64,000 bases of DNA from Leucoraja erinacea (taxonomy: Eukaryota): the NCBI RefSeq assembly GCF_028641065.1, contig NC_073416.1, forward strand, positions 6,696,001 through 6,760,000, written 5' to 3'. This document shows, piece by piece, positions 1,192 through 54,000 of this stretch. Each line of letters begins with the position of its first letter. The stretch's first letter is position 1. Below the pieces are notes generated by a model, which saw only the letters and a list, made by a program, of their open reading frames with translations, searched no databases and was not told where the DNA came from. The position numbers were made by a program, and so were the translations under genes.

Positions 1192-1840
1192 GTAAGTACA
1201 GCTTCAATTAGTTTGACTACAAAAAGAGTATTTTCTAATGCAGAAAAAGCTTTAGTTGTTACTGACCAGAAAATTAAATGCCAGGCAGTTGCTATTTCAA
1301 ATCAAATGAGTATTGTGAAGAATAAAGTTTACTAAGGAGCTGTTGAACCAGATTTAAACTTTACGTAATTGACATCAAAGACAGCAGTCCTGGGAAAATT
1401 AGAAGGTTCCATCTCCAGGTGACAATCTAGAATGCCCCATACCCAGCAGCAAATGCAGAAGGTCCTAGCTCTAGCAGAAAATCGAGAAGGTCCCATCTCC
1501 AGTCCTGCCTCCACTTGTGATATCAGATTGGAAACTCGTGAACACAAGAACTGCTCAACCTCATTCCAAGAGAAACAGCAATGTATCATAGAACCAGAGC
1601 AACTGAATCCTGTCGAATTTTCCACCATTCCTGGTACCTTACGATTCCAAATGTATCAAAAGTATTGCAGGTTTATGTAATCAGCCTATATATCGTTGTC
1701 GACGGAAACAAGTTCACAATGCTAAACTGTATGGTGAGTAAAATTGGTCAATTCACTCAGAGCACAAGAATGGGTAATAAAGAAGACAAAAAATTTGCTT
1801 TTTGAGGCTTGAGATAGGGTGATTAACATGTAGGCTTAAG

Positions 1841-1969
1841 TCTGAAGAAGGGTCTCGAGCTGAAACATCACCCATTCCTTCTATCCAGAGATGCTGCCTG
1901 TCCCGCTGAAATACTCCAGCATTTTGAGTCTATCTTCAGTTTAAACCAGCATCTGCAATTCCTTCCTAC
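1841..1969 (+). mobile_element. Short Penelope-derived element with hammerhead-like head and 15-bp TSD
   Basis: Starts TCTGAAGAAGGGTCTCGAGCTGAAACATC; flanked by ACATGTAGGCTTAAG (1826-1840) and ACATGTAGACTTAAG (1970-1984). Confidence 0.7.
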
Positions 1970-2379
1970 ACATGTAGACTTAAGTTTTGGGATCACACAA
2001 AACTCCCATCATTCTATTCATGATCCCCACCCTATAAATATCCCAGCGGTCAGCGTCCTGACACTGAAGGATGGCTAATTATTTGTACTTAGTTTCTTTC
2101 ATTTGACTGTTTGGCGCAGCCAATTTTCCTAGGACTAGATAAACCGTTTTTAGTGCTGTTGCCTTGTTGTGCATATTATATTGCAGGAGCAGGACATGGT
2201 GATGATGGTTCAATTGAGTGAAAAGCACATTTATTTACATAAAGGGTAATCAAACATGGAATGAACATGAACAAATTGCATGCTACATTCAAGAGACCTT
2301 AGGGTCTTCTGTAATGGATGAACTTGGGATAAATTATCTTCTTCATCTACATTTATCTTATAAACTTGTAACTAGATAA

Positions 2380-2700
2380 GGGCGGCACGATGACACAGCA
2401 GTAGAATTACTGCCTTGCAGCGCTCGCGGCTCCGGAGACCTGGGTTCGTTCCTGACTTTGGGTGCTGTTTGTACGGAATTTGTACGTTCTACCTGTGACC
2501 CCGTGCATTTTCTCCGAGATCTTCGGTTTCCTCCCACACTCCAAAGACGCACATGTTTGTAGGTTAATTGGCTTGTTATAAATGTAAAATTGTCCCTAGT
2601 GTGTGTAGGATAGTGTTGATACACAGGGATTGCTGGTCAGTGTAGACTCGTTGGGCCGAAGGGCCTGCTTCCGCACGGTTTCTCTAAACTAAACTAAACT
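2380..2700 (+). mobile_element. tRNA-derived SINE (V-SINE/HE1-like) with (CTAAA)n tail
   Basis: A-box-like head, B-box-like GGGTTCG, V-domain-like GGAATTTGTACGTTCT, CR1-like 3' end; similar to copies at 3356 and 5046. Confidence 0.75.
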
Positions 2701-2900
2701 CATAAATAAGACAAATTGAACAGTTCTACAGGTTAACAATTTGACCTGGCCTGCTCTGGGACCTATTGAAAATTGAATTCTCACATTATTGATGGAATTC
2801 AGTGCCTTTTACAGACTTCCCAAATACATGAATTGAATTTTAAGATAGCAAACGTCAGTAAAGATGTAATGAAAACATTTCATTTTCTCAATGTATACAG

Positions 2901-2968
2901 GGCTCTGTTCAGAAAACAATCGAGTCATTGGAGGGACTGAGGCAAATCGCCATGCGTGGCCATGGCAG
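2901..2968 (+). CDS. CELA1: Elastase exon 2 (activation peptide and mature N-terminus VIGG)
   Basis: atacag|GG LCSENNR-VIGGTEANRHAWPWQ|gtgaga. Confidence 0.92.
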
Positions 2969-3183
2969 GTGAGAAAGATAAAACATTACCTCAACAACAA
3001 CAACAAAATCATAGGCGCTCTGTAAACTCCGATAGAATGAAAATACTTGTATTAATAAGTCTCCATCACTTTTCTGTTTTCTGCCAACTTTTCTAGCCAC
3101 ATTTTCTGCATTAATATGAAGCTCTGTTTTTTAAAATATGATTTTAACACATGCCTGTCCAATCTTTTTTTTTCCTTGACCAG

Positions 3184-3281
3184 ATTTCTCTTCAAGGATG
3201 GGCTGGTTACTGGTACCACTCCTGTGGAGGGACTTTAATTCGTAACAGATGGGTGCTGACTGCTGCTCACTGTGTGGACAG
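3184..3281 (+). CDS. CELA1: Elastase exon 3 (catalytic His57)
   Basis: [32 protein letters not shown]; cag acceptor, gtgaat donor. Confidence 0.95.
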
Positions 3282-3355
3282 GTGAATGATTTTGATTGGT
3301 ACTATTTGTCATTTATAACCTATTCGCTGAGATCAGCCTGAGCCTCTGCAGGTGG

Positions 3356-3630
3356 AGTAGTTTAGTTAAGTTTAGTTTAGAGATACAGAGTGGAAACAGG
3401 CCTTTTGGCCCACCCAGTCTGCGCCAACCATTAATCATCCATGCACTAGTTCTAGTTTGACACGCTAGGAACAATTTACACACCAATTAACCTACAAACC
3501 TGCATGTCTTTGGAATGTGGGAGGTAGCCGGAGCACATTCAAACTCCGTACAGACAGCACCCATAGTCAGGATAGAACCCAAGTCTCTGGTGCTGTAAGG
3601 CAGCAACTCTACCGCTGCACCTCTGTGCTG
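3356..3630 (-). mobile_element. tRNA-derived SINE, antisense copy
   Basis: Reverse complement of the 2380/5046 SINE with (TTTAG)n at the left end. Confidence 0.7.
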
Positions 3631-5045
3631 GTAAAATCTAAAAGAGCAACATAACCCAAAACTCCTTGAAACATTTATTAAGGCTGATTATGTGCAAGCA
3701 CTAGAAATAAAATAAGATATAGTAAAACTCTGTTCCTTTGGCACGCTTAGAGCTCCTGTGAATTTCAAGGGAGCACAGAAAACGTCACCAGTGAGCTGGA
3801 TCCAAACCATCGGGATTTCCAAATAATGGGATAGCAGATTATCTATGTTTTTCAGTATTGCAGAAAACTACGAAAAGTGATGTTATAAACTACTGTATCA
3901 GACCATGCACTAATCTGATTTATGTACTCCAACAACCTTATGCAGCTTTAACTCTTGACTGTAACTGTAATTTCAATTCATATATTCTTTCCAGCTCCGA
4001 CTCTCAACACAACTCACTCTGGTGATCACTCAAGCTCTTGTGCATGTGTGAGCTGTGCAAAACTAATTTCACTGTGCAGTGCATACGTGACAATAAAGAA
4101 CCATTGAACCATAGGCATTTGGTTCCTGAGTACAGCTGATCAGCCGTCCAGTTTTTTCGCAAACCGCCCTTTAACTTTAACACACGCACCTCTCACCCAG
4201 CTAATCAATTAGAGGTGTCTGTTCCTTTGCACAGAAGTGATGAGTCCTGTTCACAGTTGTCTTGTGAGTTAACCAGACTTATCCTGAACCCTCCATATTT
4301 TATAGTGCAAAAAATCACAACTGCACTAATTTGATCAATACACACTTAACATGATTTTGTGGTGCCATCAGTATCTTAATGTTGCGTGTTTGCTGTGAGT
4401 CTGTGAAATGTTTTTTTTTCTATCCTGTGTCAGTAAATAAGTCTACTAAATTTTCAGAGGAAGGCAATCCACTACATTCTGTGAAAATATTCCCAACCTT
4501 TTCCACCTTTGTGATTTTGAAATCTGTGTTTGTGTCTTTTTCCGAAGTATTTGGTTCTTCCCATTTTTCTCCCTTTCTCCAGATCGTTGTCTTTCCAATC
4601 TATTCATTCGGAATACTTCATAAGGCAATTCGACTGAGATTCATTTATTCCACACACAGATACTCCCTGACCAAAAACTAAATTCCAACAAGGGATCTGT
4701 GCACTGGGGAAGAGTATATGATTTTCAATAGTCTACACCATAAAACAACAACTTTTACTTGCCATCTCTAACAAAGTTTTAATCAACAAAGCCTGTCAAC
4801 AAGAATTACTGCAAATTAAGACCCATGCCTATTCTTCATTGAAAAGTAGTTCTCAATTGTTGCAGCAACAACATCAAATAATTTGCACACCAATTGACAT
4901 CACTGATTTACACCCAGCAATTCTATACAATAGCACATTAAATGCATGAAAGACTATCATAGAATTTACTATTGCATCCTTTGGGAAATACCATTATATT
5001 TGACAATTGATTTTCTTTTAAACCAACCTCACTGTATATAAAACA

Positions 5046-5370
5046 GGGCGGCACAGTGGGGCAGCGGTAGAGTTGCTGTCTTACATCGCTTGCAGCACCG
5101 GGGACCCAGGTTCGATCCCGGCTGTTGGTGCTGTCTGTACGGAATTTGTACGTTCTCCCTGTGACCTGCATGGATTTTCTCCAAGATCTTCAGTTTCCTC
5201 CCAAATTCGAAAGACGTACATGTTTGTAGGTTAATTGGGTTGGTGTAAGTGTAAATTGTCCGTAGTGTGTGTAGGATAGTGTTAATGTGGGGGGATAATT
5301 AGTCTGTGGGGACACGGTGGGCTGAAGGGCCTGTTTCCGTGCTGTATCTCTAAAGTAAATTAAACTAATA
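5046..5370 (+). mobile_element. tRNA-derived SINE
   Basis: GGGCGGCACAGTGGGGCAGCGGTAG...GGTTCGATCCC pol III A/B boxes; same family as 2380. Confidence 0.78.
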
Positions 5371-5470
5371 AAATGTAGGGCATTTCTTTGCTGAAGCCAC
5401 CTTCCCACACATCTATCTACCCTTGCCAATCCCCTTTGGTTAAAGTGACATCATTTTTTTTCACTTACAG

Positions 5471-5596
5471 TGCAGGTATAACACGCCGTGTCGTGGTGGG
5501 TGATCACAACATTTATGAGGATGATAAAAGCGAACAGTACATTTACGTACAACATATCATCATCCATGAAGATTGGAATGGGGATCTTGCACTTGG
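5471..5596 (+). CDS. CELA1: Elastase exon 4
   Basis: (S)AGITRRVVVGDHNIYEDDKSEQYIYVQHIIIHEDWNGDLAL(G); phase 2-2. Confidence 0.92.
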
Positions 5597-5849
5597 GTAT
5601 GTAACAATATAATATTTTGGACCAATGCATATTGTGTTGACATCAAAGTTATTTTGAATAACTTTTGAATTTTGAATAACTAGTCTATTACAGCCGCTAC
5701 TTGAATCACAATCTCATAAAAGCACCATTGATGTGGAATCACCAATGACTCATGGATAACTTTGTGTAGCAAAAAAAGATATATGCCCGCACATCGATTG
5801 TTCAGTGTGCGTCTGTGTGTGAGAGGGAGACACTCATCTCCTACACAGA

Positions 5850-6497
5850 TCTTTCACCAAAGCATTTGAGAAGATGAGTGTTACATTCAACATCCAAAAG
5901 ATAAAGGTCTTCTACTAATCTACCTCACCACACCATGTCAACAACCTGGAAAACATGCACCGCTTCCCATGTCTAAGGAGCCACCTCTCAGAAAAGGCAG
6001 ACATTCATATGAAATACACCACTGCCTTCAATGAACCAGGACAAACGTTGGTCAATTGAGGAAAAGGAGTATTTGAAGGTCAAGATGTCATCACTCACAT
6101 GTTCATCCCCACACTTCCAGAATAGACACTATTCTGAGCTCTGTCATGGACAAAGGAAAAGATGCAAGGATGTGCTCAAAGCCATCGTGAAGAAATGCAA
6201 CATCCCCAATGACTCCTGTGAATCACTGTCCCAAGACCACTCAAGTGTAGAAGAATTATACAGGATGGGATTGAGAATCTTGAGTTCTTGCATCAAGAAC
6301 ACATGGAGGTCCTGTGGAAATGACCAATAAAGCAGACCCCCTCATGAACTAACCATCCACCCACCCCATCAGCCACCACCTGCCCCATCTGTGGAAGAGT
6401 CTGCCGTTCCTACATTGGTCTCATAAACCAGCTCAGACCAACAAGTGGTCGTACATTATCCTTGATCCCATGGAGATGCCTCAGAACAAGAAGAAGA
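5850..6497 (+). mobile_element. Degraded RTE/BovB-like LINE 3' end
   Basis: Fragments GQRKRCKDVLKAIVKKCNIPNDSCESLSQD and a CPICGRVC zinc-finger-like stretch, ending in AAGAAGAAGA. Confidence 0.65.
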
Positions 6498-6523
6498 TGC
6501 TGACACATGATCATATATATGAG

Positions 6524-9500
6524 CTATGAGGGCTGATTCCATGCTAAGAAGCTCCTAAGTAACAATGCTACAGATTTTTGGAAGGAAGTGAGAGCTCTTA
6601 GCAGTTGCAAAACATCTCTACCATGTACTGTAGATGGAATCTCCAGAACAGCTAATATCGCGGAGTTATGGCGACAACATTACAGCACTTTATTCAGCTG
6701 TGTCCAAGGTGACTTGTATAGGGTGGACAATACTGAGAGTAATGACTCGATGGTGATTATGTCACATGAGGTGTATCATGCCATGAACAAGCTGTCCAAC
6801 AACAAAGCAAGTGGCTTGGATCATATCTCTGCTGAACATCTTAAGTATGCGAGTATGAGGATAGCTCCTCTCCTGCTATTTGTTTTACTGGCTTTATGAT
6901 TCATGGCTTGTTACCAGACTCAATGTTGTCTGTCCTGTTAGTGCCGGTCATTAAGGCCAAAGCTGGTAAAGTAGGCAGCCTAAATAATTACAGGCCCATA
7001 GCTTTAGCCAGCATATTGTCAAAAGTTTTAGAAAGAATTCTGCTGGATAAAATAAATGAGTTTGTTAACTCCACAGATAACCAGTTTGGCTTTAAAGCTA
7101 AACATGGCACTGACTTATGCATATATGCCCTAAAGGAGATTGTAAACAAATATAGAGGCAAAACTCTTCAGTCCTTATGTGCTTTATTGATGCTTCCAAA
7201 GCCTTTGACCGTGTTAATCACAGAAAGCTGTTTGGTAAAATGAGTCAAAGAGGGGTGCCTGAATACATTGTTAGAATTCTGGCCTACTGGTATGCCCACC
7301 AGACTATGCAAATAAAATGGGGCAATAGGCTCTCAGCCCCATTTGGGGTTAGCAATGGTGTTAGACAAGGGGGAATTTTGTCCCCAGTCCTTTTTAATCT
7401 ATATATTGATGATCTGTCTAAACAATTGAAAGCCTGTAAGGTGCGTGATTGGTAATATTTTAGTGAACCATATTATGTATGCAGATGATCTTGTGGTCTT
7501 TAGTCCATCTAGCACTGGTTTCCAGCAGCTCCTTACTATATGTTCCGTGTATGGTGTGGAACATGACATTAAATATAATGCTAGTAAGAGTGCTGTTATG
7601 ATCTGTGGAACCAAAGAGGATAAATGGCTAAAATATCCTGTTTTTAAATTGTCTGACAATAATCTCAGTGTCTGTAATAAGATAAAATATCTAGGGCATA
7701 TTATTACAGAACAAATGACAGATGATGAGGATATTTATAGGCAACGACGCATGCTGTATGTATAGGCGAATATTCTCTTGCATAAATTTGGTGCGTGTGC
7801 AGATGTGGTTAAGATGTCGCTATTTAGAGCATACTGCACACCACTCTACACTGCGCACCTGTGGTCGAACTATTTAAAGACAAGTATGCAGAGACTAAGA
7901 ATATGATTTATTGGTTGGATAGTTCTACACAACAGACAGAATGGATAAAAATGGAGAAGGAGGATTGTCATCCTTGTAATATAGGAACGATCCTCTTTTC
8001 CCCCAAAAAACTGAATAACACAATATATAAGAAGAACCCAATTATATATGGTACAATAAGAATTTGGAAACAAATAAAATTATCTTTAAAATTAAGAAAT
8101 CTATCACTGTTAATGCCAATTGCGAATAACCCTTTATTTAAACCATCTCTTATTGATAAGACATATAACCAATGGGAAAGTCTCGGAATTAGAAGGATCA
8201 GGGATATGTACGAAACAGGAAACCTACTATCATTCCAACAACTACAATTAAAATTTAAATTGAAAAACAACCAATATTTTAAATATCTTCAGATTTGCGA
8301 CTTTGTGAAAAAATATATACAAGGATATCAAAAAGTAACTCCTGACTTATTGGAAGAAGCAATGAATGAATTGAAGCTGACTCACAAAAATTAATATCCT
8401 ATTTATATAATAGTATTCTAAATATAGACCTACCATCGACAGAGGTACTTAGAGAAGAGTGGGAACGGGAATTAATGATAAAAATTACGAAGGTTAAATG
8501 GGAAAAATACCTGATATATATTCACAAATGTTCAATTAATGTAAGACATAATCTAATACAATTTAAAATTGTACATAGATTATATTATTCAAAAACAAGA
8601 TTGAACAAATTTTATCCAAATATATCCGCCACTTGTGATAAATGTCTAGCCCAAAAGGCAACTATAACACACTCCTTAGTTTCCTGCATAAAACTTTATA
8701 GATTTTGGAATGATATTTTTGAAATACTTACAAAATTATTCAAGACAAGAATGGAACCTAATACTGAAATGATTATATTTGGTGTAATGGAAGATGGGAA
8801 TAAATTGAACACATCTCAAAATCTATTCCTTAATTATGGTTTAATAATAGCAAAAAAATTAATACTTAAATTTTGGAAGGGTACATCAATACCAACGCTT
8901 AAAATGTGGATTGCAAGTATGTTGGACACCGCTCATCTTGAGGAAATGCGATTCCTCCTAATGGATAAATCAGACCAATTCATAACGAGTTGGTCTCCAT
9001 TCGTCGTTTTTTTGGAATCATATGGTGCAACACAATTGTAAAAAATAACTGTTTCAGGACTGGACGAGGGTTGGTCAAGACTATAAATAATGATCTCCTT
9101 TTCTTTTCACTATTTTCTCTCTCAACTTTCTTCATTTACTCGTTTTCTTTCTTCACACACTATATATTTCACATTTTTCTATCCTTTACTATCTAACCTC
9201 TTTTTCTTATTCTCATCTTTTTTCAATGTAACAAAAAAAAAAGAAGTTGTACATAAAATGTATTATGAAAATATATATTAGGCACTTTGGTGCCATATGA
9301 CTGTGCTTACTTCTAATAAAATAAAATATAAAAAAAAAAAAAAAAGACAAGTATGCAGAGACTAAAGGTGGCATATAACGATGCCATGAGAACACTGCTA
9401 AGGCAACCTAGATGGTGTAGTGCCATTAATATGTTTGTGGCTGCAGGAGTCAGTACTTTAGAAGCTATCCTAAGACACCACATGTATAAATTCATTTGCA

Positions 9501-14940: not shown

Positions 14941-15005
14941 ATGCTGGATTGCAACGGCCAAAGTGCAACGTGCAGCCAATACATCTATTTCCATTAACTG
15001 GATTA

Positions 15006-16979: not shown

Positions 16980-17190
16980 ATGCTAAAAATCTGAAATAAA
17001 AAATTCTGGATAAACTCTGCAGGTCAGGCACTGTCTGTGGAAAAAGAAAAACAGAGTTGACATTTCAGGTCAATCACATTTCATCAGTTCTGGTGAAAGA
17101 TAAAAGATCCTTAATTTGAAATGCTATCTGTTTCTTTCTGCATAGATGCTGCCTGACCTGTTGATATTTCCACCATTTTCTGTTTTCTTC
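16980..17190. mobile_element. Old palindromic (inverted-dimer) Penelope terminal-repeat remnant
   Basis: CAGGTCAGGCA..TCTGTGG and ATAGATGCTGCCTGACCTG inverted arms. Confidence 0.55.
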
Positions 17191-17699
17191 CTGTCCATCT
17201 GGTCAAATCTTCTTACTGGTCAGTCACTCCTGACTGAGGATGACTTGCTTCCACTTTAGCCCTATGAATCCTAGGGTGGTTGATAAGACCAATATAGGAA
17301 CTGCAAACCCTTCCACAACAAGGGCGGGAGGTTCCTGACAGGGTGAGTGGACACTTGTGAGGTGGTGTGCTCCTTCAACCATTTGTTTCTTAGTCCTCCT
17401 TCTCCACTTTCAGTGGTTATGATCCACAGGATTCCAAATATTAGTGGGGAAGTTGCACTTTTTTCCAATATACCTTTGTGCAAATCTTTGAATTTTTATC
17501 TGTCTGCCTGGTCATTTCTTGTAATGGAGGTCAGAATAAAGTTTGTGGTTTAGAGATCAGGCACGCCAATGAGATGATCTGCCTCATGGAGGCAACTGAG
17601 TGTAATTAGGACCTGAATGTTGGTCTGGAAAAGAACATTGATGTTGATTTCTTATCCTCCTTCCAGTTTGAAGTGTACAACAATAAATGTAATTGTGCC

Positions 17700-18900: not shown

Positions 18901-19239
18901 GAGTAGGCCTAAACCTGTTTGGTAGAACTATTCCAATTAGTCCATCTCCCTTTACCACGTAGCCTTTTTTGTTTTATGCTGTTCCATTTAATACAAGTCA
19001 GAGTAAACAGTTTTTTCTCCGGTCTGCAGGTTGTGATTAGTGGGTTACCACAGGGATTGGTGCTTGTCAGTCGCAATTTATGAGGGATTTGGTCGAGGGG
19101 AGCAAATGTCATGTTTGTTGTTGTTTAAAAAGAGAGGAGAGTGCGGAGGGTGCAAGGATGCTTAAAGAGGATGCGGGCAAGCTAAGTGGGTGAGGACTTG
19201 ACAGCTGGGATATGATGTAATGAAATGTCAGATCATCTG

Positions 19240-19450
19240 TAGAAACAAGGAATTGTAGTTGTTGGTTTACAAAAAAAGACACAATGTGTTGGACTAACTC
19301 AATGGGTCAGGCAGCATCTCTGGAGAACATGGATAGGTGATATTTCGAGTTGGGATCTTTCTTCAGACATCCCAACCTGAAAGGTCACCTATCCATGTTC
19401 TCCATAGATGCTGCCTGACCTGGTGTGTTAATCCAACGCTGTCGTTTTGA
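19240..19450. mobile_element. Inverted-dimer Penelope-derived element with 11-bp TSD, inside an old CR1
   Basis: Arms GGTCAGGCAGCATCTCTGGAGAACATGGATAGGTGA and TCACCTATCCATGTTCTCCATAGATGCTGCCTGACC; TSD CAGATCATCTG at 19229-19239 and 19451-19461. Confidence 0.72.
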
Positions 19451-19939
19451 CAGATCATCTGCCATGGTGCACAAAATAGGAAAGCAGAGTTTTATTTAAA
19501 TGGTGTCATTAAATGACAGATTAGAACGTTGTTGTTCAAAGGGAACTGGGTGTTTATGTGCACAATAAACTTAAGACTAATATGAAGGTATGGGAAGTTG
19601 TTAATGGGCAAATGGTATGTTAGCTTTTGTTGTGAGAGGCTTTGAGTAAAGAGGTTTGACTGGCAGAGCCATCATGGATTTAGGAAAGGGAGCTTGTGTT
19701 TTACAGATCAGTTTTGGGATTGTGAGCAGCAGAACAGATGGGAAATTGCTATTGTGCATTCAAAGCATCGCATGTGAGTAAACAAAGTGAGAGCATGTTG
19801 GACTGCGGTAATATACTGGTGTGGAATGAAAATTGGTTTATGGACAGAAAACAGAATAGGAATTAAAGGGTAGTTTTCTAGTTGCGGGGCTGTAATGGAT
19901 TAGTTGTAATGGTGTTACAGCGATTTGATTAGTACATTA

Positions 19940-20417
19940 CATAGAAACATAGAAACATAGAAATTAGGTGCAGGAGTAGGCCATTCGGCCCTTCGAGCCT
20001 GCACCGCCATTCAATATGATCATGGCTGATCATCCAACTCAGTATCCCGTACCTGCCTTCTCTCCATACCCCCTGATCCCCTTAGCCACAAGGGCCACAT
20101 CTAACTCCCTCTTAAATATAGCCAATGAACTGGCCTCAACTACTCTCTGTGGCAGAGAGTTCCAGAGATTCACCACTCTCTGTGTGAAAAAAGTTCTTCT
20201 CACCTTGGTTTTAAAGGATTTCCCCCTTATCCTTAAGCTGTGACCCCTTGTCCTGGACTTCCCTAACATCGGGAACAATCTTCCTGCATCTAGCCTGTCC
20301 AACCCCTTAAGAATTTTGTAAGTTTCTATAAGATCCCCTCTCAATCTCCTAAATTCTAGAGAGGATAAACCAAGTCTATCCAGTCTTTCTTTATAAGACA
20401 GTCCTGACATCCCAGGA
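19940..20417 (-). mobile_element. Young 5'-truncated CR1 LINE
   Basis: Open C-terminus LSYKERLDRLGL..LEFRRLRGDLIETYKIL..RTRGH..FFTQRVVNLWNSLP; (TTTCTATG)n tail; near-identical to 62517-62995. Confidence 0.9.
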
Positions 20418-25640: not shown

Positions 25641-26112
25641 GACTACTATTTTCTGGTCTGTTCTTGGGTGCTTTCTGGCTGCTGGTATTATTTTCTGGAC
25701 CTGTTGCACTTCCATGACCTGCACCCTTCTTGAGACATGTAGATGCTTTTGATGGCGGGGATGGCTGTTCCCGCGATGGACCAGGTTGAGTCCTCCACTC
25801 TGCAGCCTCTTGTGTTCCTGTGCTGTGCGTTTGTAAATAACTATCTCTCACAAAATCCACTTTTACTGCTATCATTGGTACAGCATCATTAAAGAACAAT
25901 CGCGCAATGATCACGTTGCTGTTTATGGGAGCTTGTTGTGTGCAACTTGCTGCAAAGTTTCCTCCATTACAGCAAGTATTTAATTTGGGCACAAAGCACT
26001 TGGATCTTTGTTGTGAAATGCATTATGGAGTTGCATGACTGCCTTTCTTTTATTGATTCTTGTGGCATAAAAGGCTGTTCAGCCCCTTGCATATCTGCCA
26101 GGTCTTTGAAAG

Positions 26113-26215
26113 AGGGTAGACACAAAATACGGGAGTAACTCGGCGGGACGGGCAGCATCTCTGGAGAGAAGGAATGGGTGATATTTTGGGTCAAGACCCT
26201 TCTTCAGACTCGGGA
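26113..26215 (-). mobile_element. Short Penelope-derived element (hammerhead-like head), antisense
   Basis: Reverse complement reads AGTCTGAAGAAGGGTCTTGACCCAAAATATCACCCATTCC...; CTTTGAAAG duplicated on both flanks. Confidence 0.68.
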
Positions 26216-26442
26216 CTTTGAAAGGACTGTCTGCTCTCCCCACAGGCCTGCAATTTTCCCTTTCAAGTTTATTTCAAGTCCCTTTCTGAATGCTGCTTCT
26301 GTCATCCTATCAGGGTGTTCATTCCTGATCTTAACAGATTGCTGCTTTTGTGAAGTATAAAAATAATGGTTATCTTGTCAAATATCATTAATAGTATTTG
26401 CACTTTCTACAATGATAACTCTTCACTTTGCTTATCTTGTAG

Positions 26443-44317: not shown

Positions 44318-45067
44318 CTTAAGGACAAGAGACTGGTGTTAATACAGTTCAGAGGAACAACTGCTAGTCGTTAAAGACTGTAGTGTCACACCACAAACGT
44401 AGCCCTTCTCAGTGTGGGAGGGCCAGCCCACAGTCCTTCGCATCGAGTCAGCCAGGACTCTGTGAGCAGCACCCTTGTCCCCCGAGGATGAAGGTTGTGG
44501 GCTCGTGTCTCACTTGAGAGGCTCGAGCAAGAAATCCAGGCTGAAATATCCAATACAGTGTTGGGGGGAGTGCCACACTGTCAGAGGAGCCATCCTTCAG
44601 ATGTTCAGCCAACGGCCTGTCAGTCCTGGAGTGGGAATAAAAGATCCCACGACATTATTCAAAAAGGACATGGTGTCCTTGGATGCAGCATCACTCAAGC
44701 ACATTACCTGGCCCTTACTGCCTTCCTCTTTGAGAGATCACTTGGTGCCATTTGCCTGCCATTTTTTACTGCAACTGTGACATTTCAAAAAAAAGCTTCA
44801 TCAGTTGTTAAGTGGTTGTGGATGCCCTGAAAGAGGCTGTGAAAATGCAGGCCCTACTATCTCCATGAAATTTGGAGAGCCTACATTTGCTGAATTACAT
44901 CGAAACATTACCAACATGTCAGCTCAGACATTGTAGTTAAAACTGGAGATAAAATGGCCTGCTCCTGCACCTATTGTCTATTGTTGCTGCCGGCAACAAC
45001 AGCTACCACCAGACTGCATTGGAAGCAAGTTTTGTCTGATAGAAGTTGGGACCACAACTAACTCAAG

Positions 45068-45196
45068 GAAGAAGGGTCTCGACCCGAAACGTCACCCATT
45101 CCTTCTCTCCAGAGATACTGCCTGTCCCACTGAGTTACTCCAGCATTTTTTGTCTATCTTCGGTTTAAACCAGCATCTGCAGTTCCTTCCTACACA
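45068..45196 (+). mobile_element. Short Penelope-derived element with 9-bp TSD
   Basis: GAAGAAGGGTCTCGACCCGAAACGTCACCCATTCC...; TAACTCAAG at 45059-45067 and 45197-45205; very similar to 1841-1969. Confidence 0.75.
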
Positions 45197-47359
45197 TAAC
45201 TCAAGCAATAGTCTCCACATATGTCCCCATATTTGTCTCATCTATTTACACGGATAATATAACTGATTCTAACATTTAATCAGCTAACAACATAACATGA
45301 ATTCAATTAAGAAACCCAATCTCTAATCCCCCAACATCTCATTTATCTGCCTTCTGCAGAGCAAAAGTGGCCTTAAAAAACTGAATGGATCTGAAAACTG
45401 GCTGCAAAAGGCAAGAAGAGAGCAGCTGACCAGAGTCACGATGGGCTGAATGGCCACCTTCTGCACCTTATAACTCGCAACAGCATTTGGAGCTAACCCA
45501 AGTTAGCAATTAAAATTCATCATCAGCTGTAGTCTTCTACCAGCCGGGCTGTCACCTGTAGTTAAGGCACGTCTTGATGGCAGCAAATTGCATTATAACA
45601 TATCCCAAGTGGCATCAAAGGAGTATTAGCAAAATTTGACAGTGAGCTGAAAGGAAAATATTAGGAGTACCAAAACCTTGGTTGAAGAGAGATTTTAAAG
45701 AATATCTTCGAGAAGGGGCAGAAGGACTTCTATGGCTCAGGCCTCCAATGGCAGAGCCACAGGAATTGGGGATGAATAACAGGTCAGATATGGAGGAGCA
45801 CAGAGATTTGAAACTTGAAAGGTTGGGGAAGATCACAAAGAAAGGGACAGGCAAAAAAAACATGGTGGGATCTGATAATAAGAGGGATCTGAGAATTTTT
45901 TTATCAAAAATTAAAAACCGGGCATGCTGGAAATTGGAAATAAAAACATAATGCTAGAAACACCCAGTAGGTCAGGCAGCATCTGTGGAGAGGGAAACAG
46001 CATTACAATTTCAGGTTGAAGACCCTTCAGAATAACATATGATAGCTGGTTATGGCTTTTTAAACAGATGTACTAAGAGACACAAGCAGCATTCTCTGTG
46101 GGTTCTCTTTTCTGGAGAAATGTAGGTTAGGAGGTGACCTAGAGATTTTTTTTAAAACATCGGTAGGTTTACAGTGGATAGAAAGAGAATATTTCCACTT
46201 GTGGAAACTACAATGAGAATGTGAAACATGCTCCCACACAGAGCACTAACATTCGTAATTCTACCTCATTAGGTAATTCCATTACTGCATTTCATTTCTG
46301 TTTCATGCTACTTCAGATTGTATTAAAATTTTCGCACCATTCTGCCATGTTGCTTTTGTCATTGTATCTATTGTTGTAGATATCATTATCACATACTGTA
46401 TATGCAAGAGTTTGAGATTTAAGCGAAGGTGCATTGCACCCTGGTGTATACGACAACCAATCTGAATCGAAGTGTTTGAAGTGAATTTAAAGGGACACGC
46501 ATATGAGGCAGCAGGAAATAAGAGGATCACACTGATCGATTTGAATGGCGAATGACCTCAGGCAGCATGCCAAAGATTTGAAAATTGTGTCAAGTTTCTC
46601 CTCATCTGTGTTAGCTTTATACTCTGACCCCTGGTTTAACCCTCTCCATCAAGCAGAATATGTATTTTAAATTCCAATGAGTTTACCCCAATCTTTCTCC
46701 TCGTGGGCAATCCTTCGTCTAAGGAACCGATCCAGTGAATTAATGCTGCGCTGACTCCAAAGCAGGCATGTCCTTCCTTCAGCTCGAGACTGCAGACATT
46801 AGTCCAATGTGATCCCACCAAAGCCCTGGTCAACCTCAGCAAATACCCTTGCACTTCTCTATCCATCCCCTCTTGCAATAAAGGTGAACGTACCATTTGC
46901 CTCCTAATTGTTCTCCACACCTACATGTTTATGTGCGTCATCTTGTGAACCAGCCGAGGTCAGGACCCAGCGTGGTGGGACAGCCTACTGATGTTCACTT
47001 GTTCTGAGTTCATGGAGGATCGACGAGCCAATGACCTGGATAGTAAACCCTCATCCACACTAGGGTCAGGGAGGGCCAAATTGGCAAATTTCAAGACCAG
47101 TGAGCTGCCAGGTTTTCATTGGCTGTAGTGACGTCTGCCCTGCCAGGATCTCTTGAAGAGGAGAGAATTCATAGTTACACCCACTTTAAAGGAGTCTAGA
47201 ATGAGTAATGTCACGATTCTCTCTGACCAGAGTCTCGAACAAGTAATGGAACAGTTTTGAAGGCCTTGTCTTGGTCTGATTTTATGGACTTAATTACAGA
47301 GAAACCCAGTAATTTCATGTCAGAAACATAATGCAAGGAAAGACACAGACATTTGATCA

Positions 47360-47830
47360 ATCCTTGGCCTCCTCCACTACCAGAGTGAGGCTACATGCAA
47401 ACTGCAAGACCAACGTCTCATATTCCACCTTGGTAAGCGATACCACCCCCCCTCCACCCATCAAAATACTTTCTTTCCATTTCCCTGCCCACATCATCCA
47501 GTTCATTACCTTTCCTCCACCTGCTGATCTCCCAGTCCTCCCTGCTCCTTTCCACCCAACTCATCCGCACCCGTCATTCTACTCTTCACACCTCACCCTC
47601 CTTATCAGATTCCACCATTTGGACCATTTTGTCTTCTCCACTTGTCGCCTCCAGCCATGGTAACCATCTCCACCCAACTCATTGGTCAATCAACCTTTCC
47701 TCATCTGGATTCACCTTCCACCTCACTCCTTGCCCTTGCCTCTCACGACCAGCTTTCTCCCCCTCCCTACTCCATCAGTCTGAAGATGGGTCCTGACCTG
47801 AAATGTCCTCTGCCCATTCCCTCCACCAAA
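47360..47830 (+). mobile_element. Penelope-like element 3' fragment
   Basis: Decayed LGLLHYQSEATCKL..QRLIFHLG (GIY-YIG C-terminal region), pyrimidine-rich UTR, then CTGAAGA..GAAA motif. Confidence 0.6.
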
Positions 47831-48123
47831 TCCCTCCAGCTCTCCATCCCTCAGTTGTTATGCTTGGGATTTTTATCCTGCTGGTGTTGAGATGAACATG
47901 GACATTCAATAGCTTGCATCTACCAACTCCATCCCACCTTCCCAGTTGGGTTCTATTTTAAATCTGCACTGTATTACTAAGAATTTATAATCCGCTCCCA
48001 CAGCATCAGGCATGTTAAAAAACAAAATAAATCACACAAAATGTTTGCACAAAAAATAAAGCCATTTTGCTCTCCTGGAGTTGTACAAAAGTCATTCCTA
48101 TTGGCCAGAAACGTAGACCTTAC

Positions 48124-48420
48124 CTGGCACTTGATTCCCGCTTTGCTACAGGGGCACACCTCGGGATCACAGTAAAACCTACAGTCACACCCGCATTCCT
48201 CCCTGGATGAGCGAATGGCCCGTAGCTCGTGCTTTTCCTCCGTATCAATCCTGTTGACGCCCGATGCACGTAACAATGCTCTTCGCCTTTTTGTGGGTAG
48301 TGGTTGTAAAAAGAAATAGTCATCTACCTCAATACTGTCCACATCAATGTCATCATCGGAAACGTCATCAATGGTGAGTACATTGGCCTCCTCCGACTCA
48401 ACCATACCGTTCTTGGTCAA
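48124..48420 (-). CDS. CSRNP2: CSRNP2 coding exon 3
   Basis: [12 protein letters not shown]...[22 protein letters not shown]...[25 protein letters not shown]; 297 nt, phase 0-0. Confidence 0.95.
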
Positions 48421-49494
48421 CTGTTGGGGAAAAGATTAGAGTGGTTTAAGTCCAGGTGCCTGTGCTGCAAGTACCTAGACTTGCGTGGCAAGACAGCCAC
48501 TCAATTCTGCTGTGTGATTGACTAAGATCATGGGTGATCCTGTACTTCTCTGCCACCCAGTCCCCATTCCCTGTCGAAATGATCTGTCAGATTCAGCCTT
48601 GAATGTACTGAGCAAAAGGCTATATGGGGGTGGAAGTGAATCCCAGAGGATCACAACCTTCTGCACAAAGGAATATCTCCTCAACTTCGTCTTGAACTGG
48701 TGGTCCCTCAAACCTCACTGCTGGATTTACTCTCCAGTGTGAAGAAACAGCCTTGGTACCAACCCTGTCATTTGGCATCATTGCACATCAGTGCAGTACC
48801 TTCACCTGCCCAGGTCACCCCTTTGTGCCAACTCTGGCTCAAGGCATTCACGGAGGCTTGGTCACTTCTCCTTCCTGCAACTGCTCTACCCCTCACACTC
48901 CTATAAAGGTTGCCAAACACGCACATTTGCATAGTCAGGCCTTCCCTCGGCCAAATGGAAAGTCCGACTCATTAGCCAACATGAAGACCATTTCTAAAGA
49001 AAGACAAAATGCTGAAGTAACTCAGCATGTCAGGCAGCATGTCTGGAGAAAATGGATAGATGACGTTTAGGGTCAGGACCCTTCTTCAGATTGATTGCAG
49101 GGGGAGCGGGGAAAGAGGGTCTCACAGAACTCCTTACGGGCAAAGGAAGGGAACTTCTTCAAAGTAGGCATGTCCAAGGAGATTTCGTAGTGGAGCAGTC
49201 AAAATGTAACAAGGAACTGCAAATGCTGGTTTCTGACCGACTTTTGATCAATATTGAAAAGTTTTCTTTGTACACGACTTTGTTTTTCTTTGGGTTGTCC
49301 TGGAGACGAATCTTTAATGTTCGAGTCCAGAAAAAATCCTGGATGGTTACATCTCCAGTGAACTGCCACATGAACCTTAAATGCATGTTATGGTGCCCAT
49401 CGCCAATTAATTGTGGCTATTTTGGAGCTGGGTTCTGAGCCACAGACCCCAGACTAAAAAGTTTCTCCTAGTAGCAGAACCATTTAAAGAGAGA

Positions 49495-50305
49495 AAAGAC
49501 AAAGTGCTGGAGTATCTCAGTGGGTCAGGCGGCAAGTCTGGAGAACACAGACAGGTGATATTTCAGGTTGGGACCCTTCTTCAGACTGATTGTGATAAGG
49601 GGGTGGGGGAGATTAAGGTGGAGGAGAAGATAAAGCCTGGCAAGTGATCGGTGGATACATGCGAGGGTTTTTTTAAATGATACAGGCAGATGGTTGGACA
49701 AAGGCCAGAGATGAAAAGCAATAGGTGTGAAATAAACATAGAAGATTTGCAAATTGTGAAGTCGAAGGAAGGAATGTAGGTGAAAGGTCCATCGACTGGC
49801 ATCAACCACAAACCCAACAACTCCCCAGTTTCTGTCCTGGGCCTCCTCTATTACCAGAGTGAGGCTACATGTAAACTGGAGGAACAGCACCTCATATTCC
49901 GCTTGGGTAGCATACAACTCAACAGTATGAACATTAAATTCTCCAATTTTAGGTAACTAACCAAAAACGCGTCCCCCTTCTTCCTCTCTCCCCCAACGCC
50001 TCTTCCCTGTGCCCCACCTGAATTCACACTGATTTATCCCCTCCCCTTCCTTTCTCTGGCGTCACAATTTCTATCCAAATGTCACACCTTTTGTCTTTTC
50101 ATCTCTGGCCTTTGTCTAAGCATCTGCCTATTATTACAAAAAAAAAACAGGCTTTGTGGTAGGGCGATCAATCTGAAGAAAGGTCCAAACCCGACCTGTA
50201 ACGTCACCTGTACATGTTCTCCACAGATGCTGCCTGACCCGCTGAGTTACTCCAGCACTTTGTCTCTCTATTTTGTAAACTAGCATCTCCAGTTCCTTGT
50301 TTCTC
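49495..50305. mobile_element. Penelope-like element 3' end with an inverted terminal-repeat copy on its 5' side
   Basis: + strand 49830-49955 reads SVLGLLYYQSEATCKLEEQHLIFRLGSIQLNSMNIKFSNFR*; terminal repeat at 50170-50305 is mirrored in inverse orientation from about 49495. Confidence 0.72.
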
Positions 50306-53300
50306 CATTTCCAAGGAGAAAGGTGTTTGACAGCTCTTGATATGGTTTGCTGGATGGAATCTTTGGTACAAGGACAACAAAATGGTGGCACCATAGTAAT
50401 CTCCACAAGCAGTGCCATCCCTCCACAATGTTTGTATTATCTCTCGATGTGTGGAAGGGGAGGTGGGAGGAAGATCAATCAACATCAGCTGTGGCCCCAA
50501 GGGTGTCCACAATGCACTGGGAGGTATCTGTGCAAATCTTGTAAATCAAGTTTGAGATTTCTTCATCCTCAAACCCATAGCCCTTAACATGACCTTTGTT
50601 TAGGACACAAAGCAGGAATGCAAGGCGAGGTTACAATGTTTATTATAAAATGCTAATAAAACAAATTTTCCTCATTTGAGAAAAGTACACAAAGGTAGTA
50701 AGAGGCTTTTTCAATGTCTCCATAAAATGCTGAAAAACCATTTCAGAGATATCCAGTGAAAAGTGCGCATGAACTCTTTCAGGTTGGTAAAGTAGTCACT
50801 GTTTTGCCATCGTCAGCCTAATCACTAAACGGGGCCACGGCCTGCAGGAAGAAAACCAATAGAAAAAGACAATTACTCAAATGACGATGTAAATGTGCTA
50901 AACTTTCACTAAAGAGTATCCGTTTTCACGGACCCCCATGGTTCATCTAAGTGATTCATAATGGTGCGCAGCCAAAGAACCCAGTCACCTGAGGTAGGCT
51001 TCTCTGGACCAGGTACAATATTCCAATGTCACAGGGAGAGCACGGCCTGGCAACGTTCAGTCCTGCTTGTGGAGTGGGGTAGTTTGTAACAGGTTGTGCA
51101 AGTAGCCATGGTGGAGCATCATCACAAGGAAACAACGTGCACAAGGGCAGAGCATGTCGAACTGCACTGAACAGCTCATATATACGCACATATCCACTCA
51201 ACGGTGAGCTGGCAGAGTGCTGTGGGCTAAGTGCAAGTAGCAACACATAGGGGAGGCTTCATCATGGAGACTACAGTGAGTGTACAAGCCATTTGTCACA
51301 GCCCAGCAGTTTCCCTGATGTGTCAATCTATAATTATCCCCGACATCAACACTTGGATTCTAAACTGAGCAGTTATTCGGATTTATTTGTATTTATAAAC
51401 AGGATTCACTCCACGCGATCTCATCCGAGGATGAGTCTCAGTTCCCCATTTCCACTGTCCCATTTGGGCAGGGGACAAGGGAGGGCTGGGGAGAAGATCC
51501 TTTAGACCCGTGGTTTCATTTGAGAAGGATGAATTTTGGAGCACGTCTCTGCTCAGATTGCACTCCTTCCAAACATTAAATAAACAGATTCCATCTGAAG
51601 CCCATTTCTAAGACCACCATTCTGAGCCATTGTCTCTTCCTCCCACTGGCAAGGTCAACATTTAGTGCCATCCCTAACTGCCCTTGAGAAGGTGGGGGTG
51701 AGCCACCATCTTGGACTGTTGCCATCCTTCTGGTGAAGGTGCTCCCACATTGCTGTTGGGGAGTGTTCCAGGAGTCAGATCAAGTGACAAGGAACAGCTT
51801 AGATTACATTTACTGGTTGGGATGGCAGGCAACTTGGAGGGGGAACCTCCAGGCGATGGTGTACCATGCACTTGCTGCCCTCGACCACGGGATAGTTAGC
51901 ATGACAATGGGGGAGGTCCCGTCTCACAAATGTTATATAGGAAGTGAAGATGATTAACGAGGGTAGCGAATGTTGCCTACAATTTGCTTGAGCAGGGGTC
52001 ATCAGGTTTTGATAGGTCTCTGTACCAAACTAAATGTATTGGAAACATTAATAACTAAACCACAACAAGAGCTGACCCGTCTCTTAGGGCACCAGCAATT
52101 CAAGAGCAGCCTTGAGCATTACCTTGAGAGACAATGATAACAAGGCTTTACATTGAATTGGCCCTGAAACTGCAGATTGGAACAAGCAATTCTATAGGAG
52201 AGAAAAACAAAGTTGATGATCTGGCGATGAGGGGGCGGGGGGAAATATAAATGCTAAAGACATTATAATTATCTCAAAGAACATTCTCCTTGGAAAATAC
52301 TAGTTACTGATACAATTTGGTGCAGTGTGCTTCTTCAGCACACACGACCATGGGAAGCTTATTGAAAGGTTTACGTTTGTTATAATTTCACAAACAATTG
52401 TTCTACTCCATATCTCAGAATGCATTTCTCCTATGTAGGTTAAATGATTTAAACACACACAAATGCTCTGAAAATCAGGGCTGTGTGGTGGACTGAGAAC
52501 ATGCACACAAACGCCCAATTACTATTTGTTCTCTGCACCCAGGTGCTGGCACGAACTAAGGAGAGAGGTTGAATTTATGACATTTAAAGCAAGAATTTCA
52601 TTGTCCTATCTGGGACACGTGACAATAAATTCTCTTGAATCTACCTTTCAGGTTTTATTCACTCCTTTGTTTTACAACAATACATTTGCTCTTTCTAAAA
52701 ATACTGGAACAGCAAGGCAGTTCACATGAGAACATAATTCCCCCCCATAAACCACCCACAGCAGGGCTGGGGATAACTCGCTTGAATTCAGCTGCCATTC
52801 TTGTGCCTCCATCATGTGCTAGAATGTTCGCTGTGGTGAAGGGGATGACTTTTGAGCAGCAATTGAACAGCTGGTCCTATGCTCACAGGAGTTCAAAAGA
52901 ACGAGAGATGATTTGAGGGGGCTTAACAGTGTGGATACTGAGTGGATGTTTCCCCTTGTGAAAGAACTTAACACGAGAAGCACAATAAGGGGTTAGTTAT
53001 CTAATTAACACAGAGAAGAGGTGGAATTATTTATATTGAAGGACATGAATCTTTGGAATTCTCTCCTCTGGAGAACTGTGAAGGAGGAGTCAATGAATAT
53101 ATTACAGGCCGAGACAGTGTTTTCGACCTTCAATCAATCAAGGATAATCAAGCAGGAAAGTGGAGCCAAGGCCAAGTTCAGATCAACCATGATCTTAGTT
53201 AATGTGGGGCAGGCTCGAGTGGCCCTCCCGCTCTTATTTTGGACAGACATATGGATAGGAGGGGTTTAGAGGGCTATGGGCCGAATGCAGCAAACAGGAC

Positions 53301-53595
53301 TAACTTGGTCAACATGCACAAGGTGGGCCAAAGGGCCCGTTTTTGTGCTGTATGGCCCAATGATTATGGGAGACTATTTCTTATGTTACTTCTCTGTGAG
53401 AGCTGACTCTCTTCCTCTTAATTCATCCCAAAGCTTTCCTGAGGTCTCCCACCAGAGGCGTTGGTCTCAGTTGTGTCTTGCTCCTCCACTGGACCCTCCT
53501 ACTCCCCTTTTCCACGAGTTGTTAAACCGAGGGGCCGCTTCCTCTGTGCCTCGGTTTTACACAAGATTCCTAAAGGCACTATTCTGAAGAAGGGT

Positions 53596-53743
53596 TTAAG
53601 AAGGAACTGCAGATGCTGGAAAATCAAAGGTAGACAAAAATGCTGGAGAAACTCAGCGGGTGAGGCAGCATCTATGGAGCAAATTTTCCTTTGCTCCATA
53701 GATGCTGCCTCACCCGCTGAGTTTCTCCAGCATGTTTGTCTAC
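53596..53743. mobile_element. Near-perfect hairpin Penelope-derived insertion with 15-bp direct repeats
   Basis: 54-bp arms at 53630-53683 and 53690-53743 (1 mismatch), 6-nt loop; ATTCTGAAGAAGGGT at 53581-53595 and 53744-53758. Confidence 0.8.
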
Positions 53744-53877
53744 ATTCTGAAGAAGGGTGGGAGGCTGCTTCTCTTGGCTTTCTAGTTTGAGGGAATCGAG
53801 GGAAATTTCTACACCCCCGAGTCACTCAGGAACGGGGCATGTAGTGAACTAGGACTGGGCTAACTAAAACATAAACC

Positions 53878-54000
53878 TTGAAGAAGGGTCATGACCCGAA
53901 ATATAATGTCCATTTCTTGCCACAGATACTGCCTGACCCACCATGTTACTCTAGCGCTGCGTTTTACTCTAGATTCCAACATCTGCAGTTTATTGTGTCA
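53878..54000 (+). mobile_element. Degraded Penelope-derived short element
   Basis: TGAAGAAGGGTCATGACCCGAAA...AGATACTGCCTGACCC...CATCTGCAGTT. Confidence 0.6.

Follow-up and report, generated by a model that had tools for sequence, protein, structure and literature searches.

The recurrent ~130-bp repeat of this skate window (the whole 64-kb stretch of DNA that was analyzed) is, judged from its sequence, the pseudo-LTR (pLTR) of a Neptune-type Penelope-like element (PLE), and its solo and paired copies are rather likely to be short cDNAs that were internally primed by the element's own reverse transcriptase (RT) on uncut RNA and stopped at a strong stop before the hammerhead. The strong stop lies just before the hammerhead and is probably the 5' end of the RNA. 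This reading is built on the identity of the pLTR with that of copies carrying RT and GIY-YIG, on target site duplications (TSDs), two 3' ends, the 5' boundary, the lack of a pile-up at the GUC site and the subfamilies that the copies have in common. The element class, the hammerhead motif and the inverted/tail anatomy are known from the literature; the family is a very large natural data set with a sharp 5' edge, two coupled 3' ends and no sign of ribozyme-cut templates, and it bears on how PLEs make pseudo-LTRs, tails and inverted ends and on the role of PLE hammerheads.

Copies in the window

The recurrent repeat described in the sequence-only reading is real, as a profile HMM recovered every copy listed there. 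The same search found unlisted pieces, namely, an inverted pair at 16994-17191, plus-strand pieces at 19370-19450 and 53686-53749, and a minus-strand piece at 49205-49234. The listed copies at 19240 and 53596 were recovered, the latter lacking its head as described, but neither is a single copy, since both are head-to-head pairs. Several copies do have their own TSDs, of 9 to 16 bp, but no convincing TSD was found for 6 of the 11 units tested in the window. The GIY-YIG-like remnants noted upstream of two heads translate as expected as C-terminal pieces (~47357-47437 and 49825-49956), and in both cases a pyrimidine-rich UTR and then the head come next. The 45068 copy is without the first two core bases, C3 and U4, because its 5' end is at G5. 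There is no tRNA head in the window, and identity as a tRNA SINE was rejected for this reason. The features are as follows.

1826-1985, plus strand: solo pLTR with tail, C3 at 1842 (HMM 1836-1972); TSDs 1826-1841 and 1970-1985, 16 bp, 1 mismatch
16994-17191, both strands: old head-to-head pair, no TSD found; arms minus 16994-17088 and plus 17109-17191
19226-19461, both strands: head-to-head pair; long tailed arm minus 19243-19368, short arm plus 19370-19450; TSD 14 bp, 1 mismatch
26101-26224, minus strand: solo pLTR ending at the short 3' site, core G12 mutated (HMM 26110-26211); TSD 12 bp, 1 mismatch (26101/26213)
45059-45205, plus strand: solo pLTR with tail, 45068-45197, starting at G5; TSD ~9 bp (45059/45197)
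45917-46031, minus strand: old decayed pLTR (HMM)
47357-47825, plus strand: 5'-truncated PLE end with GIY-YIG C-terminal remnant, pyrimidine-rich UTR and head only (head 47772-47825)
48996-49120, minus strand: pLTR ending at the short 3' site plus a short UTR stretch, G12 mutated (HMM 48996-49101)
49205-49234, minus strand: pLTR tail fragment (HMM)
49492-49776, minus strand: inverted arm, short-ended pLTR 49492-49592 plus UTR; C3 at 49584 passes the strict descriptor
49780-50303, plus strand: direct arm of the same insertion as 49492-49776; GIY-YIG remnant (stop 49954-49956), UTR, tailed pLTR 50165-50303
53581-53758, both strands: headless head-to-head pair; minus 53594-53684 tailed, plus 53686-53749 short; TSD 15 bp, exact
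53877-53996, plus strand: old decayed pLTR, head damaged (HMM 53879-53996)

The exact 15-bp TSDs of the pair at 53581-53758 themselves match the head motif.

The partner element and its abundance

The Penelope origin proposed earlier was borne out, as an RT plus GIY-YIG partner with this repeat was found. One locus (L029) has a 601-aa open frame that combines an RT (YIDD) with a C-x4-C-x2-C linker and GIY-YIG, and the repeat comes after it. The Pfam RVT_1 match of this frame (E value of 1.4e-4) falls short of the curated cut-off. The pLTR-ORF-pLTR arrangement is also present in the genome, at a locus (L169) where an EN end with UTR and pLTR is followed by the ORF and another pLTR, with RT and EN between the two pLTRs. 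Read from translations, the EN carries C..C/H/H, and the linker is C-x4-C-x2-C; the part of the Neptune literature used here defines the type by a CX2-5CxxC linker before the EN and CCHH in the EN (PMC8557442), and our clade assignment rests on these motifs. The partial tandem or inverted pLTRs, optional tail and TSDs of Neptune-type PLEs were also found. The nearest proteins are ray and skate records with 50 to 60% identity, and a PDB sequence search with the 601-aa frame returned nothing. Genome-wide, a first look gave 101,867 GIY-YIG candidates; an intact full-length ORF was not found, all copies seen being truncated or broken.

A 1-Mb genome sample, taken at fixed positions and scanned with the profile HMM, gave 529 matches and its reversed sequence gave 0, and the repeat is therefore not due to chance. 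Most copies are decayed. The pLTR covers 48.8 kb of this sample, so that one PLE end repeat fills ~5% of the sampled sequence, and extrapolation puts the genome total at about one million pieces. The same 1 Mb holds only 48 ORF-bearing ends, making solo and paired pLTRs about tenfold commoner.

The hammerhead motif

The head is predicted from its sequence to be hammerhead-like, as had been claimed, and agrees with the minimal type I hammerhead published for PLEs. The core (CUGAnGA, GAAA and UH) is invariant in the three main subfamily consensuses, with H17 being C in two of them and mostly U in the youngest. G12 and 16.2 have undergone CpG decay in one small, old cluster. An intact core is kept by 52 of the 278 heads. 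The base between 9 and 10.1 is A in 259 of 273; this "extra A" before stem II had been listed as a caveat, but it is a published feature of the PLE motif. The 10.1-11.1 pair is G-C in 177/273 and G-U in 42/273, and the palindromic 15.2-16.2 stretch, which would permit dimers, is most commonly ACGU, with the rest mostly CpG decay. Helix II is paired in 81 to 90%, with a one-sided U-A/U-G change between subfamilies, loop changes and no double change. Stem I, which had been noted to look short, is weak and consists of 2 bp, a 2x2 mismatch and another 1 to 2 bp; across 62 UTR-linked copies, pairs 1 and 2 form in 87% and 98%, pairs 3 and 4 in 8% and 6%, and pairs 5 and 6 in 77% and 56%. A strict minimal-hammerhead descriptor passes one window copy (minus strand, 49584) and had 0 matches in 50 shuffles. 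An Rfam scan gave no hammerhead match at E values up to 5, only chance hairpin matches on the 53596 pair. Monomer folds favor other hairpins. RNAalifold on 62 full-length copies gave no consensus structure, and we therefore do not claim a conserved body hairpin, although the body does pair with the tail when copies are folded singly. We predict that the hammerhead motif of the master element is weak and depends on a dimer or a protein, and that insertion does not need it. A 2017 paper is said to describe dimeric small PLE hammerheads.

Judging from the parts consulted of the survey of minimal hammerheads in metazoan PLE pLTRs (PMC4209133), the skate head shares with them the CUGAnGA and GAAA boxes, the extra base at 9/10.1, G10.1-C11.1, the palindromic 15.2-16.2 without loop 3 and the location in the pLTR, as well as the occurrence mostly as single dispersed motifs with truncated PLEs and some close opposite-strand pairs. 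Helix II is 4 to 5 bp here and helix I is 2 bp before the 2x2 mismatch, compared to 7 to 8 and 4 to 5 bp in Schistosoma, while helix I of D. virilis is also given there as 2 bp. The copy number is far above the 4,000 to 9,000 of coelacanth and Xenopus, and those parts of the survey (Cervera and De la Pena 2014) contain no 5' end mapping and no cartilaginous fish.

The 5' boundary

The 5' ends do cluster at the motif, as the sequence-only reading had noticed, but not at the GUC cut site. The cluster lies 0 to 7 nt before CUGA whether the copies are solos, inverted arms or ORF bearing. The GUC site is ~30 nt further downstream, and self-cleavage therefore does not delimit the unit. In the 1-Mb sample, 15 starts fall in +26 to +30, where the 10-nt bins on either side have 37 and 32, no unit ends at +27/+28, and just 1 of the 529 matches ends at +25 to +29. 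Cleavage-defined ends were rejected, with no pile-up at the GUC site.

TSDs were found for 27 of 102 solos, compared to 3 of 102 controls, and 18 of these 27 start between -7 and +4. The estimated share of 99 solos that reach -1, -3, -4 and -5 is 0.96, 0.61, 0.22 and 0.18, respectively, and the boundary is spread over ~7 nt and is not one base. Among matches that are neither UTR linked nor inverted, 129/263 start at or before +3, and about half of the non-UTR copies start further inside the pLTR. An alignment artifact behind the edge was rejected because the 65 UTR-linked matches among the 529 are recognizable, by a pyrimidine share of 0.6 to 0.9 and a common upstream sequence, and because the TSDs place the junction independently. 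At the pLTR-to-ORF junctions, among the best 30 of 41 matches listed, from one subfamily and biased to short ORF fragments, 7 loci have their start at the head. An ORF 5' fragment joined to another pLTR is present in 13 loci, with a start at the head in 9 of these. ORF-bearing copies and template-jump chimeras share the 5' edge, as a template end would give.

A cap-derived G is not in excess at -4 in solos (13% against a background of ~16 to 17%). RNA reads showed no place with many molecule starts or ends, in fragmented libraries dominated by host read-through and of uncertain species match; since the runs were chosen by species label, they say little on expression. The boundary bases also look like a polypyrimidine-CAG splice acceptor, form a small palindrome (TCAG-T-CTGA) and mark the edge of a C-rich tract, each of which could stall or redirect the RT.

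3' ends and head-to-head pairs

The 3' ends fall at two sites ~35 nt apart, +85 to +105 in 224/529 matches and +120 to +131 in 202/529. Neighbors in the 1-Mb sample are head to head in 96 cases and in the other orientations in 26, 16 and 9. In 58 of the 70 classifiable head-to-head pairs, one arm is long and the other short, where half would be expected (P = 8e-9), and TSDs of 11 to 19 bp were found for 24/76 pairs, compared to 0/76 swapped controls. Several of the inverted junctions fall on the TCAG-T-CTGA palindrome.

Proposed mechanism and alternatives

In the mechanism that we propose, the endonuclease would nick both target strands 9 to 19 nt apart, and the RT would start at either of two internal sites, ~+95 or ~+130 from C3, by analogy with Anolis Poseidon in vitro. 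Priming in the 5' pLTR would lead to run-off at the RNA end after 100 to 135 nt and yield a solo, priming in the 3' pLTR would yield the UTR- and ORF-bearing copies, and priming of both strands, at one site each, would yield the asymmetric head-to-head pairs. Transcription probably begins at the initiator-like TCAGTC, with its A at -3, which would set the RNA 5' end, and a run-off cDNA jumping to another template position would produce the partial tandems. More tentatively, and as a possibility that we would not yet call probable, about a million fossil cDNAs could record the Penelope cycle as a whole: transcription from an initiator that precedes the hammerhead by 3 nt, priming of both target strands by a dimeric RT at two coupled internal sites (one per strand) and a 100- to 135-nt strong-stop-like product that is integrated, or template-jumped to rebuild the pseudo-LTR, without ribozyme cleavage.

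A less likely explanation of the edge, though one to be taken seriously, is a pause in a longer RNA, where RT primed in the 3' pLTR stalls at the hammerhead, the palindrome or a C-rich, protein-bound pyrimidine tract and the cDNA is joined there, which would make solos 5'-truncated copies with a preferred breakpoint. The boundary falls where the pyrimidine tract begins and covers several bases, the junctions on the palindrome have counterparts in rotifer PLEs (PMC3846280, in part), and the UTR-linked matches show that the tract is passable. However, a stall would be expected 3' of stem II (~+20), where starts are not enriched, truncation is random again past the tract entry, and the edge is also where ORF-bearing copies and template-jump chimeras start.

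The retrozyme- or SINE-like alternative, in which terminal-repeat-only units are transcribed, self-cleave or circularize as dimers and are mobilized in trans as their own lineage, is improbable. It would account for the TSDs of individual solos and their defined 5' end, and for the hammerhead core in the head; pLTR-derived tandem retrozymes occur in vertebrates, including one cartilaginous fish, according to the part consulted of a recent preprint (bioRxiv 10.64898/2026.07.22.740005), and a solo with an internal promoter could in principle be re-transcribed. In our sample, this model is largely refuted. At K = 3 to 6, none of the subfamilies consists of solos alone, every subfamily mixing ORF- or UTR-linked, inverted and solo copies, and fine variants are common to solos and UTR-linked copies. 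Head-bearing same-strand tandem neighbors number 6 among the 529 matches against the 96 head-to-head pairs, unit ends miss the cut site, copies that continue into the ORF have the same 5' boundary, few cores are intact, and stem I is interrupted by the mismatch described above.

Least probable, by a shade, is an RNA-processing end tied to a 3' splice site, for which there are a donor-like GT at the ORF stop, a pyrimidine tract and CAG at -4 to -2 before the head, solo base frequencies at -4 to -2 that resemble an exon end and the precedent of an intron ending at helix I in Drosophila virilis Penelope (PMC4209133 and PMC2377424, both in part), but against which no spliced genomic copy was seen among 22 ORF ends that have a head downstream, the two being at least 95 nt apart, no GT..AG stop-to-head joint was among the RNA joints listed (15 of 18 in one set and 15 of 109 in another), and positions -5 and -6 agree with the sequence expected without splicing.

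Comparison with related elements

In the main text of open-access literature on Penelope, pLTRs, hammerheads and cartilaginous fish, no description of the skate family or its 5' edge was found. The sections consulted on Neptune-clade EN+ PLEs (Craig et al. 2021, PMC8557442; Arkhipova et al. 2013, PMC3846280) describe the same RT, CX2-5CxxC linker and C-terminal GIY-YIG, partial tandems, an inverted 5' pLTR, solo pLTRs and a junction palindrome, a 30- to 40-bp tail that is often one-ended and TSDs of ~8 to 10 bp or more, and they note an Inr-like motif in a rotifer pLTR. The roughly tenfold excess of solo and paired pLTRs that share a sharp 5' edge sets the skate family apart from them. Non-LTR retrozymes, in the portions used of Cervera and De la Pena 2020 (PMC7229834) and of the preprint cited above, are likewise short, noncoding and pLTR related, with a type I hammerhead and TSDs of >4 bp, but they are arranged as head-to-tail tandems, their hammerheads are canonical and efficient, and they have circular RNAs. 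The skate repeats, in contrast, carry a minimal motif, occur as solos and head-to-head pairs and lack a lineage of their own.

The closest parallel to the proposed priming is Poseidon of Anolis carolinensis, PAc (Frangieh et al. 2024, PMC11167929). In the parts of that study used here, two internal RT starts bound the tail, both strands are nicked and extended, a dimer is predicted, and the hammerhead is dispensable for insertion, with ribozyme mutants inserting normally and no RNA ends reported at the cut site. PAc belongs to a different clade and shows no strand difference in start-site use, in contrast to the one site each in 58/70 pairs here, and its ORF begins inside the hammerhead, while the likely start codon of the skate element is ~35 nt past the tail.

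Identity and abundance of the repeat

A search of the genome for the GIY-YIG endonuclease (EN) end gave 101,867 first-look candidates, of which 150 were scored and 20 loci with long open frames were fetched; the nearest database proteins were ray and skate records, pointing to a cartilaginous fish as the likely host. At locus L029, a 601-aa open frame comprises a reverse transcriptase (RT) core (YIDD; E of 1.4e-4 against RVT_1, below the curated cut-off), a C-x4-C-x2-C linker and a GIY-YIG domain with C/C/H/H, followed downstream by a UTR and then the repeat. This copy is 5' truncated, with a 23-nt inverted arm at its start and an exact 16-bp target site duplication (TSD). The ORF stop lies about 80 to 220 nt before the hammerhead-like head of the repeat in 16 of 19 located ends, and locus L169 is a partial tandem in the order EN end, UTR, repeat, ORF (N terminus through RT and EN), repeat. 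Together, these arrangements identify the repeat, as judged from sequence, as the pseudo-LTR (pLTR) of a Neptune-type Penelope-like element (PLE), the clade assignment resting on motifs described in PMC8557442. The Penelope origin proposed in the sequence-only reading is thus borne out by the RT plus GIY-YIG frame of L029 and the pLTR-ORF-pLTR order of L169, and these two loci, the former truncated, supply the partner that it lacked.

The family is real and very abundant, and belongs to a class already known. A profile HMM trained on 3 window copies together with 14 ORF-linked ends found 529 pieces (48.8 kb in total) in 100 stretches of 10 kb taken at round positions (1 Mb), and no matches in the same sequence reversed. 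Scaling this count with weights for contig size puts the total in the 2.19-Gb genome at about 1.0 million pieces (bootstrap, 0.88 to 1.18 million); the same sample held 48 ORF ends. The pieces comprised 192 inverted arms (halves of head-to-head pairs), 129 solos (lone pLTRs) with a head, 134 that begin within the pLTR, 65 UTR-linked copies and 9 ambiguous ones. Smaller contigs had about twice the pLTR density (7.5 versus 3.8 matches per 10 kb).

Two side observations concern the ORF. Most ORF ends (L049-L148; window 49952-49958) have a GT just before the stop codon or overlapping it, forming with the pyrimidine tract and CAG before the head an intron look-alike across the UTR, and one named ray protein, P0003, departs from the EN frame there. 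At L150-L168, about 100 to 500 nt upstream of the match, some ten loci open with a common CAGGGCCGGATTT-like end, after which comes a stretch of the PLE ORF 5' region; by sequence they look like a non-autonomous DNA-transposon-type element with a captured PLE piece.

The 5' boundary

With C3 of CUGA as position 0, the match of solos to the element (n = 117) was 64% at -3 but 38% at -4; UTR-linked copies (n = 64) stayed at 89 to 90%. The background-corrected shares of 99 solos reaching 0, -1, -2, -3, -4 and -5 were 0.84, 0.96, 0.62, 0.61, 0.22 and 0.18. TSDs, present in 27 of 102 solos versus 3 of 102 controls, put 18 junctions in the range -7 to +4 and none at +28, and at least one arm started at or before +3 in 66 of 96 head-to-head pairs. 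The clustering of 5' ends at the motif, claimed earlier, therefore holds, but not at the predicted GUC cut between +27 and +28: starts at +26 to +30 were not enriched (15, versus 37 and 32 in the adjoining 10-nt bins), and 1 of 529 matches ended near +27. RNA reads on locus L033 had their largest 5'-side loose-end peaks at -3 and -2 in two oligo-dT runs, which are junctions of solos within host transcripts; there was no pile-up of molecule starts or ends among the places listed.

Solos as a separate lineage were rejected, since clustering at K = 3 to 6 placed solos, inverted arms and UTR-linked copies in every cluster, and fine variants of the youngest subfamily were common to all three classes. 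The proposal of retrozyme-like, terminal-repeat-only units mobilised in trans fails on the same point, there being no solo-only cluster, and also because head-bearing tandem neighbours numbered 6 in the 1-Mb sample and ends did not lie at the cut site. Of 41 listed loci running from pLTR to ORF start, 30 were fetched; upstream, 9 continued into UTR and EN, 7 started at the head, 8 started inside the pLTR, 3 carried an inverted arm and 3 started at the tail. Thirteen of the 30 had a second pLTR joined directly to an ORF 5' fragment (about 200 to 470 nt); this pLTR began at the head in 9, with about 10 nt of UTR in 1 and inside in 3. Head starts in ORF-continuing copies and fusions argue that the edge is a property of the autonomous element's template, and those in the fusions point to template jumps from that edge. 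Such chimeras of pLTR, ORF 5' fragment and pLTR, which are frequent at L173-L200 and have variable junctions, are likely template jumps and may offer a view of how partial tandems arise.

On the most economical reading, the template RNA would end at the 5' boundary, and priming within the 5' pLTR would then yield a complete cDNA of 100 to 135 nt. TCAGTC at -5 to 0 fits the initiator consensus, with the A at -3 as first base. This reading is favored by that motif together with the TATA-less internal promoter of Drosophila virilis Penelope (PMC2377424) and the Inr-like motif of a rotifer pLTR (PMC3846280). A roadblock stopping RT at the pyrimidine tract or palindrome is possible, and the present data do not cleanly separate it from a template end. 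A splice-linked 5' end has precedent but finds no support here, the ORF end being joined to the head in 0 of 22 cases and no stop-to-head joint occurring among the RNA joints listed.

The hammerhead-like head

The three main subfamilies (about 7%, 14 to 17% and 20% divergent from their own consensus) all retain CUGAAGA, the extra A, GAAA, the palindromic CG and UC or UU, with a stem II of G-C/G-C/G-C/U-A(U-G), so that the head was rightly recognized as hammerhead-like. The extra base, G10.1-C11.1 and palindrome are shared with PLE minimal hammerheads; PMC4209133 names them as hallmarks of these motifs, whose cleavage was weak and confined to dimers or trimers. Strong activity is made doubtful by a short helix I (2 bp, a 2x2 mismatch, then 1 to 2 bp in 62 copies), the lack of double compensatory changes in the stems among the copies compared, monomer folds that favor alternative hairpins and do not exceed shuffled sequences in stability, and GUU in most copies of the youngest subfamily. 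The core was intact in 52 of 278 heads in the 1-Mb sample and in 1 in the window. Non-CpG conservation was 93% at core and 92% at invariant body positions, the pattern that neutral decay would be expected to give.

3' ends and head-to-head pairs

The 3' ends of the 529 pieces fell mainly at +85 to +105 (224) and +120 to +131 (202), which is the optional 30- to 40-bp PLE tail, absent or present. Close neighbors were oriented head to head in 96 cases, versus 26, 16 and 9 for other orientations. In the 70 of these 96 pairs classifiable at both ends (26 were left out), 58 combined a long and a short arm, 9 were short+short and 3 long+long (p = 8e-9 versus independent use). TSDs of 11 to 19 bp flanked 24 of 76 pairs versus 0 of 76 controls, and both arms belonged to the same subfamily in 69 of 76. 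An inverted copy bearing the tail at one end is already described in PMC8557442 and PMC3846280; for Anolis Poseidon in vitro, PMC11167929 reports both strands nicked and extended and RT starts at two internal sites bounding the tail.

Copies and other repeats in the window

All copies listed earlier were recovered by BLAST and nhmmer with window copies as queries and by the profile HMM, along with four additional pieces, and 5 of 11 tested units had TSDs of about 9 to 16 bp. The remnants of coding sequence at about 47360 and 49830 translate as the C terminus of a PLE GIY-YIG domain, with a pyrimidine-rich UTR and then the head downstream. In the 15-bp TSD of a headless pair (53581-53595 and 53744-53758), 13 bases match the head motif exactly, and pLTR sequence also makes up two TSDs of the 1-Mb sample (L108, L058); these are possibly, from their sequence, insertions of the element into its own repeat. 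Other features are as follows:

8024-9091 and 63014-63993; 19944-20317, 24224-24580 and 62512-62885: longer dispersed repeats of other families, 73 to 94% identity
2367-2706 and 5033-5372; 3362-3436; 16547, 18222 and 52595: short interspersed repeats, probably SINE or LINE 3' ends
48090-48440 and 50780-50850, minus strand: host-exon-like stretches

Given the last of these, the repeats are likely to be intronic.
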